DNA of 64,000 nucleotides, from NCBI GenBank assembly GCA_016198755.1, contig JACQIB010000001.1:1-64000 (forward strand). Direction: 5' to 3'. Positions 27,312 through 45,631 of this stretch are shown piece by piece (the first letter of the stretch is position 1; each line of letters opens with the position of its first letter). The notes under the pieces were generated by a model. It ran no database searches. It was not told where the DNA came from and saw only the letters and a program-made list of their open reading frames with translations. The position numbers and the translations under genes were made by a program. Source of the stretch: Candidatus Aenigmatarchaeota archaeon (GTDB taxonomy: Archaea > Aenigmatarchaeota > Aenigmatarchaeia > Aenigmatarchaeales > JACQIB01).

Positions 27312-27794
27312 CTTCGGCTCACAGTAAAATACCTGTAGAAATGGTGGCTTTGTATGTTGAACCAATAAAGTGGCATTGGAAAACTTAACTTAGGCTTAAA
27401 AAAGCCTCTTTTTCTCGTGGTTCCCCTCAGGAGCTTTGTGCTATAACTGTGGTCCACGGTGTTTTTCCTTGTTGCAGAAATGCAGCATGCTATCATAGTC
27501 CTTAACAGGACTGGCACATACCGTACGTGCCAACAGCCCTCAATGAATTCAAGTAACGCGGCTGAGCCGAAAGGCAATGACATGCCCATGGGGTATATAA
27601 GAGGGTGCAAAAAAACCGGGCAGTGAAGAAACAAAACTGTCTCTTTGAGCAAAAAGCGATGAAAAAAACAAATGACGTTTCGAGCCCGTAAGCAGATGCT
27701 CATTCGAACCTGGGAGTTCGGGTGTAAGGGCAAATAGGAAGCGATGAAAGGTTTAGAACACCTATTGAGCTTTCAAGATCTTTATGATCGATGA

Positions 27795-27831
27795 TGCCAA
27801 CAGAGGAAAGAGGAAAGGGTCTGGAACATCA
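27795..27831 (+). other. 5' arm of the pre-23S processing stem with a canonical BHB
   Basis: TGCCAACAGAGGAAA-GAGG-AAA-GGGTCTGGA pairs with TCCAGACCC-CCTT-AAG-TTTCCTCTGTTGGCA at 32936-32966. Confidence 0.9.
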
Positions 27832-29071
27832 CAATAAAGGATACTGTATGGTGGATGACTCGGCATGGGTTACCGATGAAGAGCGTAGCAAGCTGCGATA
27901 AGCCTGGGTGAGACGCAAGCAGTCTTAGAACCCGGGATTCTCCAATGCGACCTCGCGCCAGTTTAGGCTGGCATTCGCATACAGAAATGTTTGCGAAAGG
28001 GAACCCGCTGAATTAAAGCATTTTAATAAGCGGAGGAAGAAAAATCAAACGAGATGCCGCTATTAGCAGCGAGCGAAAACGGCAGAGACCAACCCGAATC
28101 TTTTTGTGTAAGCAGGAAGAGATGTGGGGCCAGGTACAATCTTTCTTTCGACCTGAAGTTCCGTGGAACACGGGTGCCATAGAAGGTGAAAGTCCTGTAA
28201 GGGAAAAAAGAAAGATTGATTCTGGAGGAAGAGTACCATTCCCCGATTCGGGAGTGGGAATATGGGGGTCATCAATCTCCAAGTCTAAACATAAACCATG
28301 GCCGATAGCGAAAGAAGTACGGTGACGGAATGTTGAAAAGAATTCTTCACCGAAGATGAAAAGAACCTGAAACCATACAGTGATAGTCGCCCATGGCGCG
28401 AAAGGTGCCCTTGTGAAGGAAAACTGCGTGAGCAGTGTGTACGAACAGGGGCTTACAGCGTTATGGGGTTCGTTTCGAAACACGTGGTAGGGAGTTTGCT
28501 TTCCTGGCGAGCTTAAGCTGTAAAACGGCGAAAGCGTAGCGAAAGCGATTGCACGCAGCCCGCAAGGGTCAGGTGCAAGGTTCGAAAGAGCCTGTAGTCA
28601 GGGGGGCAAGACCCGAAACCTTTCGATCTTACCCTGGGCAGGATGAAGTGCGGCGAAAGCTGCATGGAGGTCCGATACCGATGCTAGCGCTAACTTCTCC
28701 AGCAGGAGAAGCTTCCAAGAAAAATCTGATTGGAGGAGGTGCAACCTGCTCGGGTGACCTGGGGTAAGGGGTGAAAAGCCAATCGAGAAAGGTAATAGCT
28801 GGTTCCTCTCGAAATGTCCCTCAGGACAGCCTCGCTGGAGGCAGCTTGTGGGGTAAAGCACTGATTGGGGTGTTAAGGTGGGAAACCGCCGGCACGCCTG
28901 TCAGACTCATAACCTGCAAGCACCGTAGAAGGCGGGAGTGAGGGTACCTGGGTAAGCTAGGTATCCGAAGCGGGAACAACCGCGCCTGAGGTTAAGGTCC
29001 CTAAATGATAACTAAGTCACAAAAGTGGTGTCAGTCCAAAGACAGACGGGGCGTAGGCTTAGAAGCAGCCA

Positions 29072-29927
29072 ATTTGAGTAGTAATCTATACTTTAGAATA
29101 CGAAAATCAATAAAAGGAAGATTGATTAATAGAATAAAGTGCACAAACTACCGCCAAAAAATCCGAAAATCGCGTTGAAGACTGTTAACCTGCAAGGGTT
29201 AACAGCTTTTAGAAAAACTAAGCCTACGATACCCAATTACATAAATCCGCAACTAGCATATCTGGCGGGAGCACTAAGAGATGGTACAATTTCAAAAACT
29301 ACAGGGCCGTATGGCACAAAATACTATCTAGCAATATGCAATAAAGACAAGATATGGCTTGATAGTGTAATACGGCCTACCATAGAAACAATATTCAACA
29401 TAAAACTTGGGAAAATACTGAAAGACAGACAAAAACACCAAATCAGAATAAGAAAATATGGGATAGTGCAATTCTTGGCAGATTTGTTCCAACATCCATA
29501 TGGTAAACAAACCTTATGGAAAACCCCAAAGATCATAGAGGATTCGCATAAAGAAATAAAAAAATGGTTCTTGCGAGGATTCTATGATTCTGAAGGAGGT
29601 TGTGGGAACATAACAAAATTGTATAATAAATATCCGTGGCACAGTCCATTTCCTATCAGATTCCATTCTGGATGGATAAATGAAAAAGAATGTCCTCCAC
29701 TGGATTCTATTAGGTATATATTGACTGAAGATTTTGGTATAAAATGTTCGCCTGTTATCTTTTCTAAGAGATATAAAACAGGCAGATACAAAACTCAAGT
29801 AAAAATGTTTTATATAAAAATTACAGATAAAGAACAAAAATTGAAATTCATTAAAACCATAGGTAGCTCAAATCCAACCAAATTTAAAGAACTATTATTT
29901 TTGAAAGGATTGCTGCTCAAAGCTGAA
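29072..29927 (+). mobile_element. 23S intron 1 (856 nt, ~E. coli 1077/1078), homing-endonuclease intron
   Basis: BHB: CAGC-CA|A / GCTG-AA|C; 15-bp terminal stem TTTGAGTAGTAATCT/GGATTGCTGCTCAAA. Confidence 0.9.
29139..29927 (+). CDS. Double-motif LAGLIDADG homing endonuclease; the linear ORF runs on into the exon to 30068
   Basis: LAYLAGALRDG and FLRGFYDSEGG motifs; AT-rich. Confidence 0.88.
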
Positions 29928-30733
29928 CCGCATAATCAACGCGTAACAGCGGACCGTTCGAGGACTGATGCGCTGAAAATGGACGGGAGTAAGTTATCTA
30001 CCGAGACCTCAGATACCAAAAGGTATAGCGTAGAGAGGCGCTCTGTTCGGGTAGAAGTTGGGGCGTAAGTTCCAATGGACCGTTCAGAGATGAGAATCCT
30101 ACCGATAGTAGCAGCAAAGAAGAGTTGGAATCTCTTCCGCCCGAAAGGCAAGGTTTTCCCGGCAACGATACTCGGCCGGGAGTAAGCCGATCCTAAGTCG
30201 CCCCCTAACGGACGGCGACGAAAGGGAATACGGTTAATATTCCGTAGCTGCAGCCATAGACGGGGTAACCCAAGCCCAGGCAAAATGTTTTTGGATATGT
30301 TCATGTAAGCGAAGCGTTTAAACCCTTGGAGTTCCGTCAAGGAGAGAAAAGGGTGAATGCGTTACAGGCTTCGGCGCAAGCTGGAGTTGAGCAAATTCCA
30401 AGAATCCATGAAAATTTGCCAGGGAGCGATTGGCTGCATTCGTACTCAGAACCGACGCAGGTGACCTTGTCTGAGAAGGACGTGGCGTGACGAGATACAC
30501 CAGGCTAGGGAACTCGGCAACACTGGCCGCGTACGTTCGCTATAAGCGGTGCCCATCTAGAGATAGGTGGGTCTCAGTGACCAGGGCCAAGCGACTGTTT
30601 AACAAAAACGTAGCCGGTTGCTATGCGGAAACGCTGTGTATAACCGGTGAGGCCTGCCCAGTGGCGGTGTGTCAAACTCGGTTTCAACCGAGCTAAGCCC
30701 CGCTAAACGGCGGCGGTAACTCTGACCGTCTTA

Positions 30734-30774
30734 ATCCAATCATGTAGAGAAATCTGTATGGTTGCATTGGGTAC
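30734..30774 (+). other. 23S intron 2 (41-nt hairpin, ~1927/1928)
   Basis: Removal restores GTCTTA|AGGTAGC; stem CAATCATGTAGA-GAAA-TCTGTATGGTTG. Confidence 0.85.
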
Positions 30775-30901
30775 AGGTAGCGTAATCCCTTGCCGATTAA
30801 ATGTCGGCCTGCATCAATGGCTTAACGACTTGGCCGCTGTCCCGGTCTGGAACTCGGCGAACTTGCTATTGTGGTGAAAAGGCCACAGACCCTCAGAGGG
30901 A

Positions 30902-31163
30902 ATCGGAAGAAGTGCTCTCGAAAATTTTAAAAAATAAAAATAGGTGATAAAAATGAGAGAAATCAAAAATTTAATAGAGACAAAGTCTTGCGATCCTATA
31001 ACAGCATTAAATGTTGCAACACAAATAGTGTCAGCAGGAGCAGCAGTTGCATCTGTATACTATGCATCTAAAAAGAAATAAAATAAATACCTACCAACAT
31101 AAGCGAGAAGGTATTATGATCATGAATAGTTAGAATAGAATTTGAGCATTTCTCCGACCTCAT
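30902..31163 (+). other. 23S intron 3 (262 nt, ~2054/2055) carrying a small ORF
   Basis: BHB GAGG-GA|A / CCTC-AT|A; removal restores CAGAGGGA|AGAGAAGACCCC. Confidence 0.88.
30953..31081 (+). CDS. Intron-encoded 42-aa hydrophobic peptide
   Basis: RBS AGGTGA, then MREIKNLIETKSCDPITALNVATQIVSAGAAVASVYYASKKK*. Confidence 0.65.
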   Translation: MREIKNLIETKSCDPITALNVATQIVSAGAAVASVYYASKKK

Positions 31164-31591
31164 AGAGAAGACCCCGTGGAGCTCTGCGGCAGCCTGTCGT
31201 TGCTGTGCGGTCGCGGTTTCATAGAGTAGTTGGGAGAGGTTATATCAGCGTTTTCGGGCGCTGGTTACTCGGCAATGTAACACCAACATCTCGTGACTGT
31301 ACTGCTAACCTCGACTCGGGGGACACCGATTGGTGGGCCGCTCGGCTGGGGCGGTACGCTCATGACAGGAGATCATGAGCGCGCAAAGTTATCCTCATCC
31401 CGGTCAGAAATCGGGAGTAGAGTGTAAACGCAAAAGGATGACTGACTGTGTTCCGCAAAGCAAGGAACGCAGACGCGAAAGCGTGCGTTAGCGATACACC
31501 GAGTGGTCTTTGATGGATTTCGGTGACTTCAGAAAAGCTACCCCGGGGATATGGGTTGGCGCAGAGAAGCGGGTTTTCTTGGAACAATTTA

Positions 31592-31649
31592 ATAAGGCAA
31601 AGCTATCTTGCCAATAGAAATATTGGTTTGCAAAGCAAGCTTTATGCTA
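31592..31649 (+). repeat. ~57-nt hairpin repeat, copy 1
   Basis: ATAAGGCAAAGCTATCTTGCCAATAGAAATATTGGTTTGCAAAGCAAGCTTTATGCTA. Confidence 0.9.
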
Positions 31650-31725
31650 CACATACGTGTAGTGATTTTTCTAGAAAATCCGTGATAACCATCATTCTTC
31701 CACACATGCTATGATCGTACCTTGT

Positions 31726-31782
31726 ATAAGGCAAGCTTACTTGCCAATAGAAATATTGGTTTGAAAAGCAAGCTTTATGCTA
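31726..31782 (+). repeat. ~57-nt hairpin repeat, copy 2
   Basis: ATAAGGCAAGCTTACTTGCCAATAGAAATATTGGTTTGAAAAGCAAGCTTTATGCTA. Confidence 0.9.
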
Positions 31783-31876
31783 ATCAGAGTTTGAGAGCAA
31801 TTACTTTTTGTGGAAGAACATCTCTGCGCCAAGCCACTTCATAACAGAGTCGTGGCGGGCGAGAGCTCCTATCGAC

Positions 31877-31938
31877 ATTTCGTCGAGTATAGGGTTTCAA
31901 TTTTAGAGTTAGCTATGCCAATATTCGCGGAACGAAAA
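31877..31938 (+). other. 23S intron 5 (62 nt, ~2483/2484, H89)
   Basis: Relaxed BHB ATCG-AC|A / CGAA-AA|C; removal restores TATCGAC|CCCGCGCG. Confidence 0.8.
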
Positions 31939-32031
31939 CCCGCGCGTTGCTACCTCGCTGTCGGCTCCCCCCCTCCTGGCTGTGCAGTAGCAGCCAAGGG
32001 TGCAGGTGTTCACTGATTAAAGGGGGACGTT

Positions 32032-32122
32032 AGAAAGTGCAGGATAATGCGTGGTGGGTAATTCTTCCTATTTTTGATTTGATTAGTTAGAATTATCTAC
32101 CCAAATCTTGGCTTTCCGTGAA
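32032..32122 (+). other. 23S intron 6 (91 nt, ~2576/2577)
   Basis: Relaxed BHB GACG-TT|A / CGTG-AA|A; stem GAAAG/CTTTC. Confidence 0.8.
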
Positions 32123-32143
32123 AGCTGGGTTCAGTACGTCGTG

Positions 32144-32508
32144 ATCTGACAAGTGGGTAACGCGGGAGGAAAAGGTCTTCTAGTGAAAAATGACTGGAAA
32201 ATGTTATCCAAAGATTTCACAAATCTCATGCCTCAGATGAACTATATAGCTTAAGCTTTAGCGCTAGCAATGACTATAGTATACCTGGCATGGAAAATAA
32301 TAGATCAAGCTTATAGGGAAAATGAAGTGAACAAAAAGAAGTCACATCTGATTCCCATAAGAAAATTCTCGGGCTATGAATGAACCGTCCCAAAGCACCC
32401 GGCAAAATGTGCGTTCGGAGTAGCTAATGAGCCTTGCTATGAGAATTTTTACAAGCTTGGTTTTACTTTTAAGAAGACCATCCTGCATTCCCATTTAACG
32501 AACGATAG
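32144..32508 (+). other. 23S intron 7 (365 nt, ~2597/2598)
   Basis: BHB GTCG-TG|A / CGAT-AG|A; removal restores ACGTCGTG|AGACAG. Confidence 0.87.
32201..32383 (+). pseudogene. Intron-7 single-TM small ORF interrupted by an in-frame TAA
   Basis: MLSKDFTNLMPQMNYIA*ALALAMTIVYLAWKIIDQAYRENEVNKKKSHLIPIRKFSGYE*. Confidence 0.45.
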
Positions 32509-32574
32509 AGACAGTACGGTTTATATCTTCTGAGGGTGCATAAGTGCCTGACCCGAAGGAGCGGTGAGTACGAA

Positions 32575-32605
32575 ATGCTTACACTTAGCTGTGCGAGCAC
32601 GCAAA
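32575..32605 (+). other. 23S intron 8 (31 nt) in the sarcin-ricin loop (~2661/2662)
   Basis: Relaxed BHB TACG-AA|A / CGCA-AA|A; removal restores AGTACGAA|AGGAAC. Confidence 0.82.
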
Positions 32606-32646
32606 AGGAACGCCGCTTCGCGGCCTCTGGTTGACCAGTTGTCGTA

Positions 32647-32694
32647 ACAGCTTTAGCTATGGCGTTAACACGCAGAGAGCTATTGCTGCGATAA
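32647..32694 (+). other. 23S intron 9 (48 nt, tip of H96)
   Basis: BHB GTCG-TA|A / CGAT-AA|A; removal gives the hairpin TTGTC-GTAA-GGCAA. Confidence 0.78.
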
Positions 32695-32871
32695 AGGCAA
32701 AGCTGGGCAGCTACGCTGTAGTCTTTAAGGCCTGAAGGCATCTAAGGCCGAAATGATCGGGGAAAAGAGGCATTGGCCACAGGCTAGATAACCTGTTTGA
32801 TAGGAGCCGGGTGTAAGCACGAAGCTTCGGCGACGTGTTCAGCCTGGGCTTACTAATAGGCCATTAATTTT

Positions 32872-32928
32872 GCATAAAGCAAGTTAGCTTGCCAATAGAA
32901 ATATTGGCTTGCGAAGCAAGCTTTTGCG
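32872..32928 (+). repeat. ~57-nt hairpin repeat, copy 3 (between the 23S 3' end and the processing stem)
   Basis: GCATAAAGCAAGTTAGCTTGCCAATAGAAATATTGGCTTGCGAAGCAAGCTTTTGCG. Confidence 0.85.
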
Positions 32929-32930
32929 AA

Positions 32931-32966
32931 TGGTGTCCAGACCCCCTTAAGTTTCCTCTGTTGGCA
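32931..32966 (+). other. 3' arm of the pre-23S processing stem
   Basis: Complementary to 27795-27831, forming the BHB. Confidence 0.9.
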
Positions 32967-33048
32967 GATTTTTGTTCTTTAACAATTTAGCGTTAGCTAT
33001 AAAATCTAAAACAAGAAGGCTTAAAACCTTCTGCTCCAATTCTTTCAC

Positions 33049-42625: not shown

Positions 42626-45600
42626 GTGAAAAAAATGGGATATGGATGGGGAAAGGATTTGAAAAAGCCCGAGTTTACAAAAGTCTCGGATGTTATTTGG
42701 GAGATTCCAACAAGCTTTAAGAAAGGAATGAACGTTCCAGCAAGAATATACGCAACAAAGCAGATTCTGGATCAGATGGACCTGATGGTTTTTGACCAGA
42801 TAACAAATGTAGCAACGCTTCCAGGAATTTTGAAATATGCTTACTGTATGCCGGATGGACACAGCGGCTACGGATTTCCAATAGGCGGAGTTGCAGCAAT
42901 GGATGCTGTTGAAGGTGTGATATCACCTGGAGGGATCGGATTTGATATCAACTGCCTCCACCCAGACTCAAAAATTTCTCTTTCCAATGGGACTTGGAAA
43001 AAGGTTTCTGATTTAGAGCATGAATGGGAAAATAAAAGAGTAAAGTTTTTTAATATAGAAAACAAAGCAGTTGAAAATGCCACACCCATTATGTTCATGA
43101 AACGTATGGAGGATAATAGTATTTTTGAAATAGTAACAGAAAGCGGAAGAAAAATAAATGTTACGGCAGAACACCCCATTCTAACTCAAAGAGGGTTTAT
43201 CAGAGCCGATAATCTGAAAGAAACAGATAATGTTTACACTCAGCCATTCAGCGGTGTAGAATACGAGAAGCCATCCGACGAGGTCATAGTTTCCTATGTT
43301 GACATAGAAAGAATTTTGGATGTCATAGGAATAACAAACTCTGGAAACGCAAGAGTTCAAATTTTAAATACACTTAAAAGAGTTGGTTTAAATGAAATAC
43401 GGTACAATTCCACGGCCCTGCCAGCTATTTTGAAAATAATGGGATTTGTTTTTGGAGATGGTTGCATATCTATATTGTCAAAAATAAAAAAAGGGATGAC
43501 AGCCTTTTATGGGAAAAAAGAAGATTTAGAAACTATAAAGGAAGACATAAAAAGTTTAGGGTTTAAAGCACAAAATATTTTTTCAAGGCAACGAAAACAT
43601 AAAATAGAAACTTATTATGGAACAAGCGAATTCGATTTTACAGAGCACTCTCTTTTAAAAAAATCCACAGGATTTGCAGCACTTCTCATAGCACTGGGTA
43701 CGCCACATGGAATTAAAACCTCTCAACCTTACAGGATTCCAAAATGGATAATGAAAGCACCTCTATGGCAGAAAAGACTATTTCTCGCAGCATTTTTTGG
43801 AGCAGAGCTTTCCTCTCCAAAAACTATTAATGCATATAATTTTTATATGCATCAGTTAAATATGAACAAACTAGAAATTCTAAAAGAAAATGGCGAAGAA
43901 TTTTTAAATGATATACGTCTACTGCTTTCTGAATTCTGTATAACATCTACATATCCCACTATAGTAGAAGGTAACCAGTATGTAGGCAAAAAAGGAAAAA
44001 CTATAGGTTTAAGAATTTGTATACATTCAAATCCGGACAATTTGGTCAAGCTCTATGAAAATGTGGGATACGAATATAATAAAGAAAAGTCAAATTTGGC
44101 CTGCCTTGCAGCAAATTACACACGCCTAAAGGAATCCATAAAATCACATAGGAGTGACATACGTACTTTGGCTCTTGAAATGTATAAATCAGGCGAAAGA
44201 CCGCGGGATATTAGAGCCGCTTTACTACAAGAAAACATATCAAAAAATTTTATAAACCATTCTATATGGCCTGATAGGAGCAATAATGTAAGGTTGCCTG
44301 CCGCATCAATTACTTTTGCTTTTGATGAATTCAAGAAAAATCTTATAGGAGATGGCATTGTTATCGACAAAATAAAAAAGATCGAACAACACCCCTATAA
44401 AGGATTTGTATATGATATTACAATTAACAATGAAAACCACAATTTTATAGCCAATAATATTATTTCTCACAATTGTGGAATGAGACTTGTTACTACAAAC
44501 CTTACTCTGAAGGATGTACAGCCTAAGCTGAAAGAACTTGTGGATAAGTTGTTCCAGAAGGTTCCAGCGGGAGTTGGTTCAGAAGGTTTTCTAAAGCTTA
44601 CAAAAGATGAGTTCAGGAAAGTTGTTGAGGAAGGGGCAGAGTGGTGCGTGAAAAAAGGATATGGATGGGAGGAAGATTTGCAGAGGACAGAGCTGTATGG
44701 GAGATGTAAGGATGCTGATGCAAAGAAAATCAGCCAGAAATCTGTGGATAGGGGGTATAGCCAGATAGGAACTTTAGGTTCTGGAAATCATTATTTGGAA
44801 ATACAGCATGTAAAACCAGAGAACATTATTGACAAGGCTACAGCAAAGGCATTCGGAATTTTCCCTGATCAGGTTGTAATAATGTTTCACTGCGGTTCCC
44901 GCGGGTTTGGCCATCAGGTTGCAACAGATTATCTTAACACTTTCCTTTCTGTAATGGAAAGCAAATATAAAATAAAGATTTTAGACAGGGAACTTGCATG
45001 TGCTCCGTTTAATTCTCCGGAAGGACAGGATTACTTTACTGCAATGAAATGCGGAATAAATATGAGCTTTGCAAATAGACAGGTTATTCTGCACAGGATT
45101 CGTGAAGTCTTTTCAGATGTTTTCAAACAGCCAGCAGATAAAATGGGTTTACAAATGGTTTATGATGTTGCCCACAACAGAGGTTCTTTGGAAAAGCATT
45201 TAGTGGATGGTAGCTGGAGGGAAGTTATTGTACACAGAAAGGGGGCTACTGCGTGCTTTGGTCCCAACAGAACTGAAGTGCCAAAAATCTGGCAATCCAC
45301 TGGTCAGCCCGTAATTATTGGTGGTTCAATGGAAACAGGTTCATACCTTTTAGTTGGTACAGATAAGGCAGCAGAAACATTTTTTTCAACTGCCCACGGA
45401 GCAGGCAGAACAATGAGCAGGACAAAAGCAAAGGGATTATGGAGAGGGGAACAACTTGTGAAAGATATGCAGAAGAAGGGAATTTACGTGCGCACAGTAT
45501 CTTTCCCAGGATTAGCTGAAGAGGCTGGTGGAGCTTACAAAGATATAGATTCTGTTATAAATGCTGCAGATTTGGCTGGTATTTCAAAGAAAGTTACAAA

Positions 45601-45631
45601 ACTTGTTCCAATAGGAAACGTAAAAGGTTAG
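42626..45631 (+). CDS. rtcB: RNA-splicing ligase RtcB containing an intein
   Basis: MPDGH, GFDIN|C, GTLGSGNHY, HCGSRG, YDVAHN, HRKGAT and STAHGAGR motifs. Confidence 0.96.
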   Translation: MKKMGYGWGKDLKKPEFTKVSDVIWEIPTSFKKGMNVPARIYATKQILDQMDLMVFDQITNVATLPGILKYAYCMPDGHSGYGFPIGGVAAMDAVEGVISPGGIGFDINCLHPDSKISLSNGTWKKVSDLEHEWENKRVKFFNIENKAVENATPIMFMKRMEDNSIFEIVTESGRKINVTAEHPILTQRGFIRADNLKETDNVYTQPFSGVEYEKPSDEVIVSYVDIERILDVIGITNSGNARVQILNTLKRVGLNEIRYNSTALPAILKIMGFVFGDGCISILSKIKKGMTAFYGKKEDLETIKEDIKSLGFKAQNIFSRQRKHKIETYYGTSEFDFTEHSLLKKSTGFAALLIALGTPHGIKTSQPYRIPKWIMKAPLWQKRLFLAAFFGAELSSPKTINAYNFYMHQLNMNKLEILKENGEEFLNDIRLLLSEFCITSTYPTIVEGNQYVGKKGKTIGLRICIHSNPDNLVKLYENVGYEYNKEKSNLACLAANYTRLKESIKSHRSDIRTLALEMYKSGERPRDIRAALLQENISKNFINHSIWPDRSNNVRLPAASITFAFDEFKKNLIGDGIVIDKIKKIEQHPYKGFVYDITINNENHNFIANNIISHNCGMRLVTTNLTLKDVQPKLKELVDKLFQKVPAGVGSEGFLKLTKDEFRKVVEEGAEWCVKKGYGWEEDLQRTELYGRCKDADAKKISQKSVDRGYSQIGTLGSGNHYLEIQHVKPENIIDKATAKAFGIFPDQVVIMFHCGSRGFGHQVATDYLNTFLSVMESKYKIKILDRELACAPFNSPEGQDYFTAMKCGINMSFANRQVILHRIREVFSDVFKQPADKMGLQMVYDVAHNRGSLEKHLVDGSWREVIVHRKGATACFGPNRTEVPKIWQSTGQPVIIGGSMETGSYLLVGTDKAAETFFSTAHGAGRTMSRTKAKGLWRGEQLVKDMQKKGIYVRTVSFPGLAEEAGGAYKDIDSVINAADLAGISKKVTKLVPIGNVKG
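42953..44473 (+). mobile_element. Intein (507 aa) with a LAGLIDADG endonuclease domain
   Basis: Starts CLHPD; block B TAEHP; GFVFGDG and FLAAFFGAE motifs; ends SHN followed by extein Cys. Confidence 0.93.

Follow-up and report, generated by a model that had tools for sequence, protein, structure and literature searches.

The 23S rRNA gene in a 64,000-nucleotide (nt) stretch of the genome of a Candidatus Aenigmatarchaeota archaeon (hereafter, the window) is split by nine inserts, which several lines of evidence support as archaeal protein-spliced introns of the bulge-helix-bulge (BHB) type, one with the strict form of the motif and eight with relaxed forms. This assignment is based on the folds at the junctions, compensatory changes in related genomes, the presence of splicing endonuclease and RtcB ligase genes, the lack of group I intron matches, and exon-exon joints in RNA contigs. 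In what we regard as a highly likely organization of the locus, a single 23S gene is preceded by a leader with box C/D guide RNAs, its nine BHB introns are processed by the EndA/RtcB pathway, and intron 7, located in helix 93 (H93), is the home of another guide RNA. The window lies on contig 5 of a 0.89 Mb genome that consists of 6 contigs and is rated 89% complete.

Standard rRNA finders clip this gene. Rfam recognizes a single archaeal large subunit (LSU) rRNA gene, with a match of 1902 bits, and the alignment collapses after position 32081, where the 23S call ends (the 16S call is truncated as well; see below). The inserts were detected by blastn and split alignment against near-intronless relatives, with 25 related genomes forming the comparison set of 23S genes, and by MAFFT alignment with E. 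coli rrlH. The exact boundaries follow the tRNA rule, under which each strand contributes a 4-nt segment of the central helix and then a 3-nt bulge, with cleavage between the second and third bulge nucleotides. The nine introns and the shortest exon are listed below with window coordinates, E. coli sites, and the numbers of base pairs in the central helix, the outer (exon-exon) helix, and the inner (intron-side) helix.

29072..29927 (+), intron 1, 856 nt, E. coli 1077/1078, GTPase-associated centre; relaxed BHB, central 4, outer 1, inner 15
30734..30774 (+), intron 2, 41 nt, E. coli 1927/1928, between H69 and H71; central 4 (three G-U pairs), outer 3, inner 0
30902..31163 (+), intron 3, 262 nt, E. 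coli 2054/2055; central 4, outer 0, inner 5
31551..31842 (+), intron 4, 292 nt, E. coli 2449/2450, peptidyl transferase ring; central 4, outer 0, inner 3 then 12
31877..31938 (+), intron 5, 62 nt, E. coli 2483/2484; central 3, outer 0, inner 6
32032..32122 (+), intron 6, 91 nt, E. coli 2576/2577; central 3, outer 0, inner 6
32123..32143 (+), 21-nt exon, E. coli 2577-2597
32144..32508 (+), intron 7, 365 nt, E. coli 2597/2598, GNRA loop of H93; central 4, outer 1, inner 1
32575..32605 (+), intron 8, 31 nt, E. coli 2661/2662, inside the sarcin-ricin loop; central 3, outer 0, inner 5
32647..32694 (+), intron 9, 48 nt, E. coli 2706/2707, tip of H96; strict BHB, central 4, outer 3, inner 4

The introns account for 2048 of the 5140 nt of the gene (39.8%), so that 3092 nt are left after in-script removal, and this intron-free RNA aligns with E. 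coli 23S in 1596 of 2792 columns. Removal at the bonds given by the rule restores, at all nine junctions, sequence that is common to the relatives and E. coli; at the tip of H96, the restored loop is GUAA. Apart from the 21-nt exon, the shortest exons are 34 nt and 41 nt long. For intron 2, the alignment favors 30735-30775 (1928/1929), one position downstream of the BHB register; at the other eight sites, the junctions in E. coli numbering are those listed. A local Infernal alignment of the 3' part of the gene to the archaeal LSU model finds 36 letters in the sarcin-ricin loop, compared to 5 in the consensus, and 52 letters in the H96 tip, compared to 6, and the model ends at 32876. An earlier note on this DNA, made from the sequence alone, had described nine inserts of these lengths at these E. 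coli sites, an intron share of about 40%, a 21-nt exon, and restoration of conserved rRNA upon removal, and had proposed the LSU model alignment; all of these descriptions hold, and the alignment, which covers the 3' part, confirms the two inserts located there. The coordinates given in that note have to be amended in three respects: intron 2 shifts to 30734-30774, the processing stem of the gene spans 27796-32965, and a tenth insert, described below, had gone unlisted.

The folds at the junctions conform to a single pattern. The sequence permits 24 sliding registers in total, and exactly one per site yields a central helix with 3-4 pairs, namely, 4 of 4 pairs at six sites and 3 of 4 at three. 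An adjoining helix of at least 3 pairs is present at 8 of the 9 sites; this combination of central and adjoining helices occurs in 1.5% of 300,000 random position pairs from the same gene, and the strict motif in 0.04%. Seven introns have the central and the intron-side helices without an outer exon-exon helix, and in intron 2 the arrangement is reversed, with the outer helix present and the inner one missing. All nine introns begin with A, and so do all introns of relatives at 1927 (3), 2054 (2), 2449 (5), 2576 (1), 2597 (16), and 2706 (1). A scan for strict BHB motifs free of alignment limits was uninformative, producing many false registers from long helices. Relaxed forms of the BHB that are cut only by certain types of endonuclease have been defined (PMC5829648). 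The statement of the earlier note that each insert is flanked by a strict or relaxed BHB stands as far as the fold is concerned, with one register per site, and is better worded as one strict and eight relaxed motifs.

Inserts at the same sites in related genomes also bear on these folds. In a blastn chain survey, the relatives were found to hold 0 to 8 inserts of at least 25 nt, and the recurrent places are near 570, 782, 1090, 1784, 1923-1931, 2055, 2255, 2448, 2478, 2534, 2577, 2598, and 2660; judging from these sequences, a high intron load is typical of the order. Registers were compared using exact anchors, with longer anchors replacing the short ones at 2661. At 1927, three relatives (L013, L016, and L018) share the register and carry different complementary intron strands, GGGU, AGAU, or GGGC, facing the exon segment GUCU. 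At 2054, the register is shared with L012 (874 nt) and L016 (37 nt), and the helix GAGG:CCUC changes to GUGG:CCAC in L016. Five relatives have inserts in the same register at 2449, with 4 of 4 central pairs in three and 2 of 4 in two. The most extensive sample comes from 2597, where the central helix is 4/4 in all 16 sequences from relatives and the inner helices, 4-13 pairs long, are unrelated in sequence yet paired. L016 also carries a homologous 45-nt intron in the same register at 2706. Compensatory changes in the helices are seen, altogether, at 1927, 2054, 2449, 2597, and 2706. The remaining sites are less informative: at 2576, the one relative found has the register shifted by one; at 2483, the inserts of five relatives gave central helices of 1-3 pairs and flanks of 0 at the anchors used, that is, no fold; no relative's insert was recovered with exact anchors at 1077 or 2661; and a 221-nt insert of L015 near 2660, seen in the chain survey, was not recovered with the longer anchors. 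One row, for L007 at 1928 (2096 nt), was dropped as an artefact.

The genome encodes the enzymes that such introns would require, and the 23S gene itself is enclosed in a processing stem with a canonical BHB.

27796..27825 (+), processing stem of the 23S gene, 5' strand with the canonical BHB, expected cleavage at 27815/27816
32936..32965 (+), processing stem, 3' strand, expected cleavage at 32950/32951
42797..45628 (+), RtcB ligase gene, one open frame of 1010 codons, 10 kb downstream of the 23S gene in the same window

The BHB of the processing stem has a central helix of 4/4 pairs, at least 14 outer and 9 inner pairs, and the bulges AA/A and AA/G (the slash marks the cut). Together with the nine introns, it brings the count to the roughly ten EndA/RtcB events per large subunit that the earlier note had estimated. 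Two adjacent genes (178 and 173 codons) each encode both Pfam domains of the splicing endonuclease. The first product is most similar to the catalytic subunit of Nanoarchaeum, whose His it retains; the second, in which this His is missing, most resembles the non-catalytic half of the Methanopyrus enzyme, from which we infer that the endonuclease is a heterotetramer. The RtcB family match is split into two parts (profile positions 1-50 and 48-426) with about 1.4 kb between them, so that the frame probably contains an intein.

RNA and DNA sequencing runs were compared next to the genome: the source DNA run (X1), a DNA run from another site (X5), and two metatranscriptomes from other studies (X10 and X16). 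RNA contigs that are 95-100% like the exons contain exon-exon joints at six of the predicted junctions. These are 29070>29927 for intron 1 (in X10), 30733>30775 for intron 2 (in X16), 31548>31841 for intron 4 (in X10 and X16, with none in the two DNA runs), 31876>31939 for intron 5 (in X10 and X16), and 32031>32123 for intron 6 (in X10 and X16, and also in the DNA run X5); for intron 7, RNA contigs in X10 and X16 continue 8 letters past 32144 into the next exon. One RNA contig of 188 nt spans introns 4, 5, and 6 and then runs 8 letters beyond intron 7. The source run X1 contains none of these joints.

Several observations weigh against the identification of all nine inserts as BHB introns spliced in this organism. 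The strict BHB, with at least 2 pairs in both flanking helices, is present at 1 of the 9 sites, the H96 tip, and intron 7, with 1 pair on each side and a degenerate inner helix, is the one that lacks the adjoining helix. The interiors of introns 3, 8, and 9 and the exons within 32509-32767 lie outside the RNA-contig cover. The RNA contigs share variants with the X5 DNA population, 98-99% like the window in the exons, and in this population sites 1, 2, 5, and 6 appear as intronless joints or loose ends. Finally, the Logan contigs of the source run (k = 31) break in the short exons 31847-31876 and 32004-32033, so that the linkage of introns 4, 5, and 6 rests on equal depth and the original assembly. 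Given the intronless forms in X5 and the shared variants, the RNA joints may come from transcripts of intronless kin rather than from spliced products. They prove the positions of the junctions, not splicing in this organism. Of the junction check in RNA that the earlier note had proposed, the joints are in place at six sites, and their origin in splicing is the part that intronless kin put in doubt. At 2449 and 2597, however, the joints have no DNA counterpart in the runs compared, and all relatives with data have the insert at 2597; splicing is therefore the simpler reading at these two sites.

Some of the inserts at helix tips, namely, those in H93, the sarcin-ricin loop, H96, and the 3'-terminal region, could alternatively be expansion segments that are kept in the mature 23S rRNA, which we consider improbable. 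Three of the nine inserts do lie inside terminal loops, the H93 insert is found in nearly all relatives like a fixed feature of the rRNA, and the inserts at 2661 and 2706 are outside the RNA-contig cover. All three, however, show the BHB geometry in the correct register, including the strict motif in H96, and the RNA contigs in two runs go from 32144 straight to the next exon. Relatives that lack the insert at 2661 (6 of the 6 found) or at 2706 (16 of 17) have ordinary loops at these places. Furthermore, 31 extra nt in the sarcin-ricin tetraloop would disrupt the factor-binding site, which, to our knowledge, is conserved in all ribosomes.

Still less probable is a 23S rRNA made of up to ten base-paired fragments, with the inserts cut out and the exons left unjoined, as with bacterial intervening sequences. 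Many rRNA insertions in ultrasmall bacteria are described as removed from the transcripts and devoid of intron features (PMC11270868), and an outer exon-exon helix is missing at 7 of the 9 sites here. Against fragmentation, the RNA contigs are continuous over six junctions, four of these in one contig, and RtcB is encoded in the genome; a free 21-nt piece in the peptidyl transferase region would be unlikely to be held in place.

The same low probability applies to an assembly chimera, in which the introns of different strains have been threaded through shared exons so that no genome has all nine. In runs X1 and X5, other organisms of the same and of another groundwater sample show loose ends of 134-255 letters that lead into unrelated sequence at window positions 29071, 30614, 31551-31554, and 32033; these fall at the same rRNA positions, and therefore, the sites host different inserts across the community. 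Those of X1 (29071, 31551, and 32033) show that the same samples hold organisms with other inserts at the same sites, and together with the contig breaks in two conserved exons, they speak for a chimera. The source run, nevertheless, covers the whole gene in six pieces at a depth of 15.1-19.4 with zero differences from the window; the flanking contigs of 30.8 kb and 48.8 kb have a similar depth, 19 and 18.3. Of the five overlaps between the X1 pieces, four either fall beyond the intron cluster or contain letters specific to an intron, 98-99% of the words are present in four runs, and, with relatives reaching 8 inserts of at least 25 nt, nine is within range. Mis-assembly, which the earlier note had named as a way in which its reading could fail, is accordingly countered by the coverage of the whole gene at flank-like depth, with the breaks in two exons as the residual doubt.

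Degenerate self-splicing group I introns as the source of the long inserts (1, 3, 4, and 7) were rejected and retain hardly any probability: such introns are known in the 23S genes of related phyla at 1923, 1931, 2500, and 2593, as catalogued in the group I part of PMC6125680, and 4 of the 41 related genomes sampled have matches to the group I model RF00028 (three of them inside 23S genes), but this model has no match in the region (E up to 0.01), in intron 7 (E up to 10), or in the genome (37 of 50 candidates scored), the end letters are wrong, with no permitted register combining a 5' exon ending in U with an intron ending in G, and the H93 inserts of relatives are as short as 155 nt.

Among the BHB introns, intron 7 stands out by its content. 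The inserts at 2597 have in common a module of about 65 nt with two invariant single-stranded stretches, and it appears from comparison of these sequences that the H93 intron hosts a conserved box C/D guide RNA, with U2438 and G2251 of the P loop as predicted targets. The features of the window's copy are as follows.

32371..32434 (+), box C/D guide RNA in intron 7; terminal stem GGGC/GCCU, box C at 32376-83, box D (AUGA) at 32427-30
32384-91, guide ACCGUCCC, pairs with the P loop
32417-26, guide GGAGUAGCUA, pairs with 31535-44

In the alignment of 15 copies (A1), the terminal stem shows compensatory changes in 5 of 5 pairs, and AUGA after the stem and GA before it are invariant, which is the layout of a box C/D kink-turn; the U in position 6 of box C faces the A in position 1 of box D in most copies. 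One invariant stretch, ACCG(C/U)CCC, complements the P loop, GGGGCGGU (E. coli 2250-2257). At the place of the D' box, three nucleotides downstream, xxGA is present in 10 of the 15 copies, which puts the fifth pair on G2251. The other stretch, GGAGUAGCU, pairs with E. coli 2434-2443 with one A-C mismatch, and the fifth pair upstream of box D is U2438. In L016 and L005, this guide covaries with its target, as GCUAC changes to GUUAC in the rRNA and GUAGC to GUAAC in the guide. A covariance model built for the module (R1) has exactly one match in each of 26 out of 41 related genomes; among the matches that share a contig with the 23S gene, 14 lie inside it, 3 upstream (46-219 nt), and 1 downstream (80 nt), with 1 unplaced. 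Fibrillarin, Nop5, and L7Ae are encoded in the genome. Two points reduce the certainty of the targets in this genome: the window's copy has no recognizable D'/C' boxes, which makes G2251 less certain here, and shuffled guides reach 8-nt duplexes in 447 and 453 of 2000 cases, so that the duplexes taken from a single genome are not significant. An Rfam search of intron 7 with E up to 10 found no family match, and no RNA contig is at least 95% alike over 32225-32405, which says nothing either way. The possibility that intron 7 contains a nested 5S rRNA was considered and rejected, as a good 5S gene (74 bits) is located elsewhere and intron 7 has no Rfam match.

A second set of putative guides lies in the 5' leader of the gene.

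27573..27773 (+), leader array of three box C/D-like units upstream of the processing stem
Unit 1, box C at about 27576-82, guide GCCCAUGGGGUA
Unit 2, 27616-27689
Unit 3, 27690-27773, D guide at 27757-27764, box D at 27765-27768

Rfam matches in 27400-27830 are weak (E 0.09-9.6, all under the cut-offs), and 7 of the 8 belong to CD-box families. The guide of unit 3, GAACACCU, followed by UUGA, pairs with the A loop at 32004-32011 (E. coli 2549-2556), where the N+5 rule points to U2552. Its motif is found upstream of the 23S gene in the loci of 19 relatives, and L009 shows a double compensatory change, with AGGGGUUU in the A loop and AAACCCCU in the guide; an Rfam search of the L009 locus alone gave the LSU match only. 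The other leader guides pair with 2597-2604 and 2062-2070, and their motifs likewise recur upstream of the 23S genes of relatives. Upstream of unit 1, at 27540-27575, the stretch AACGCGGCTGAGC with a canonical CUGA is common to L004, L008, and L017 and may be a further guide unit.

These features suggest the following sequence of events in the maturation of the large subunit RNA. The two-subunit endonuclease would cut the canonical BHB of the processing stem and, at each intron, a pair of 3-nt bulges 4 base pairs apart, each of them behind its second nucleotide; with eight relaxed motifs, mostly lacking the outer helix, an endonuclease of broad specificity is called for. RtcB would then join the exons and probably circularize the introns, in which case the reading frame of intron 1 would be closed by a stop only across the junction of the circle. 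Intron 7, inherited across the order, appears to be the usual home of a box C/D guide RNA, with one guide pairing beside the peptidyl transferase ring and directing the predicted methylation of U2438, and the other pairing with the P loop, at G2251 in the copies that keep the D' box. For the leader array, the predicted targets are the A-loop nucleotide U2552 and sites around A2600 and 2062-2070. To the broader proposition that the pre-23S transcript carries its own methylation guides and that the H93 intron is kept as a guide gene, released by EndA/RtcB and perhaps circular, we give an even chance.

Nine introns, a 21-nt exon, and an intron within the sarcin-ricin loop illustrate the extent of RNA cutting and joining that would stand behind one ribosome in a genome of less than 1 Mb. 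The relaxed motifs together with the two-subunit endonuclease are natural substrates for the study of RNA recognition. Guides in a fixed intron and in the leader would tie ribose methylation to splicing and rRNA processing within one transcript; the guide cargo suggests a reason for the persistence of the H93 intron, and the origin of intron-hosted guide RNAs becomes testable in archaea.

Introns 1 and 3 hold reading frames. Judged by its sequence, intron 1 is probably a mobile element with a predicted LAGLIDADG endonuclease gene.

29139..29927 (+), reading frame of intron 1, 263 codons, two LAGLIDADG-like motifs, no in-intron stop

If the intron is circularized, the frame would continue for one more codon and end at TGA (29072-29077), and in the precursor another 46 codons follow within the exon. 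The protein matches Pfam LAGLIDADG_3 (PF14528) with E 0.0033 and 18.1 bits, under the cut-off of 22.5; 7 of its 12 homologues have PF14528 on record, and its NCBIfam matches, which are weak, map to the intein portions of two proteins. A sequence search of the PDB with this protein returned noise only, with no match. Intron 3 contains a frame of 42 codons (30953-31081, MREIKNLIET...) with a hydrophobic second half and AGGTGAT seven bases before the ATG, and profile searches gave no family match for it.

The gene also contains repeats. A 55-nt module of three hairpins (stems GCAAG..CUUGC, CCAAUA-GAAA-UAUUGG, and GCUUGC..GCAAGC) is present genome-wide in three copies, all inside the 23S gene: two in intron 4 (31598-31652 and 31731-31785) and one (32875-32930) that makes up the tenth insert.

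32875..32930 (+), tenth insert of about 53-54 nt, immediately downstream of the Rfam model end and upstream of helix 1 (3' strand); carries the three-hairpin repeat for the third time

This third copy, which follows the 23S body and precedes the 3' strand of helix 1, is flanked by a 6-nt direct repeat, TTTTGC. Several weak BHB-like registers exist at the tenth insert, for example, 32876/32930 with central 4, outer 2, and inner 2, and none is singled out. The module was not found at the loci of relatives, and a search of species genomes gave three single, apparently chance, bacterial matches. A shorter repeat, TTAGCTAT, occurs in introns 5 and 9 and just past the gene (31909-31917, 32653-32661, and 32993-33000); 3 of its 5 plus-strand copies in the 64 kb are at the 23S gene. 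AGCTTTAGC is common to introns 7 and 9 (32254 and 32649).

Some observations concern the rRNA genes beyond the introns. The sarcin-ricin loop (32567-32611 with intron 8 removed) reads AGUACGAAAGGAAC, with GAAA where E. coli and the Rfam archaeal consensus have GAGA, and the change of G2661 to A is shared by the window and 6 of the 6 relatives recovered. The 16S gene (L032; G000 contig 2, about 200490-203226, minus strand) is unlinked and apparently interrupted as well: between the E. coli-like blocks 670-965, 1220-1349, 1373-1421, and 1502-1539, there are about 160, 845, and 144 extra nt, and therefore, the Rfam 16S call of 1626 nt is too short. The 5S gene (74 bits) is at 138216-138331 of contig 5 of the same genome, about 105 kb from the 23S gene and on the opposite strand, so that all three rRNA genes are unlinked. 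No tRNA genes were found in the 64-kb window.

The kind of intron described here is known, and the load is high and typical of the order. As described in the parts of PMC2602781 and PMC4496867 that deal with these elements, the BHB introns in the 23S and 16S genes of Thermoproteales and Desulfurococcales (such as Vdi141.L1927 of Vulcanisaeta with I-Vdi141I) likewise lie in conserved rRNA, their motif is recognized by the tRNA splicing endonuclease, and some carry LAGLIDADG genes. L1927 is a published archaeal intron site, as the earlier note had stated, and is common to both systems: the target given in PMC2602781 is ...CTCTTAA/GGTAGCC, compared to ...CGTCTTAA/GGTAGCG in the window. Unlike Thermoproteales and Desulfurococcales, the window has nine introns in one gene of a mesophilic small-genome archaeon, motifs that mostly lack the outer helix, five introns of only 31-91 nt, an intron in the sarcin-ricin loop, and a guide-bearing intron distributed order-wide. 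Similar, too, are the multi-intron LSU genes of Woesearchaeota, Pacearchaeota, and Micrarchaeota, likewise metagenomic small archaea, with both BHB and group I introns (PMC6125680; Nawrocki, Jones, Eddy 2018); as far as its account of LSU introns goes, that work catalogues the group I introns and has the BHB introns only in a figure, whereas none of the nine introns in the window is group I. The CPR bacteria are likewise ultrasmall groundwater organisms with crowded rRNA insertions, many of them with LAGLIDADG genes, but these are bacterial, lack the BHB machinery, and are group I/II-like or not assigned to a removal mechanism (PMC11270868). No catalogue of BHB introns in the 23S genes of small-genome archaea was found in the main texts of the open literature.

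For the guides, the nearest parallel is the box C/D RNA in the tRNA-Trp intron of Euryarchaeota, likewise a guide in a BHB intron that acts on the host RNA (PMC7994747); in the window, the host is 23S rRNA, and the predicted targets are nucleotides of the P loop and the peptidyl transferase ring. The genomic contexts of guides that are set out in the corresponding part of PMC7994747 are intergenic, tRNA-linked, and tRNA-intron, and rRNA introns and leaders are not in that list. Within the same open-literature scope, nothing on guide RNAs encoded in rRNA introns was found, nor were guides within the pre-23S transcript found in the searchable literature. The targets themselves have precedents, as Dennis et al. 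2015 (PMC4644070) predicted archaeal C/D small RNAs for G2251 in three and for U2552 in five of the species studied there; those guides are free-standing genes of thermophiles, whereas the ones predicted here are part of the pre-23S transcript. What is new is, then, the set of relaxed motifs, an intron placed inside the sarcin-ricin loop, and, most notably, the guide RNAs in an intron and in the leader, which, if they function as predicted, would be an archaeal counterpart of the intron-encoded small nucleolar RNAs that acts on its own host RNA.

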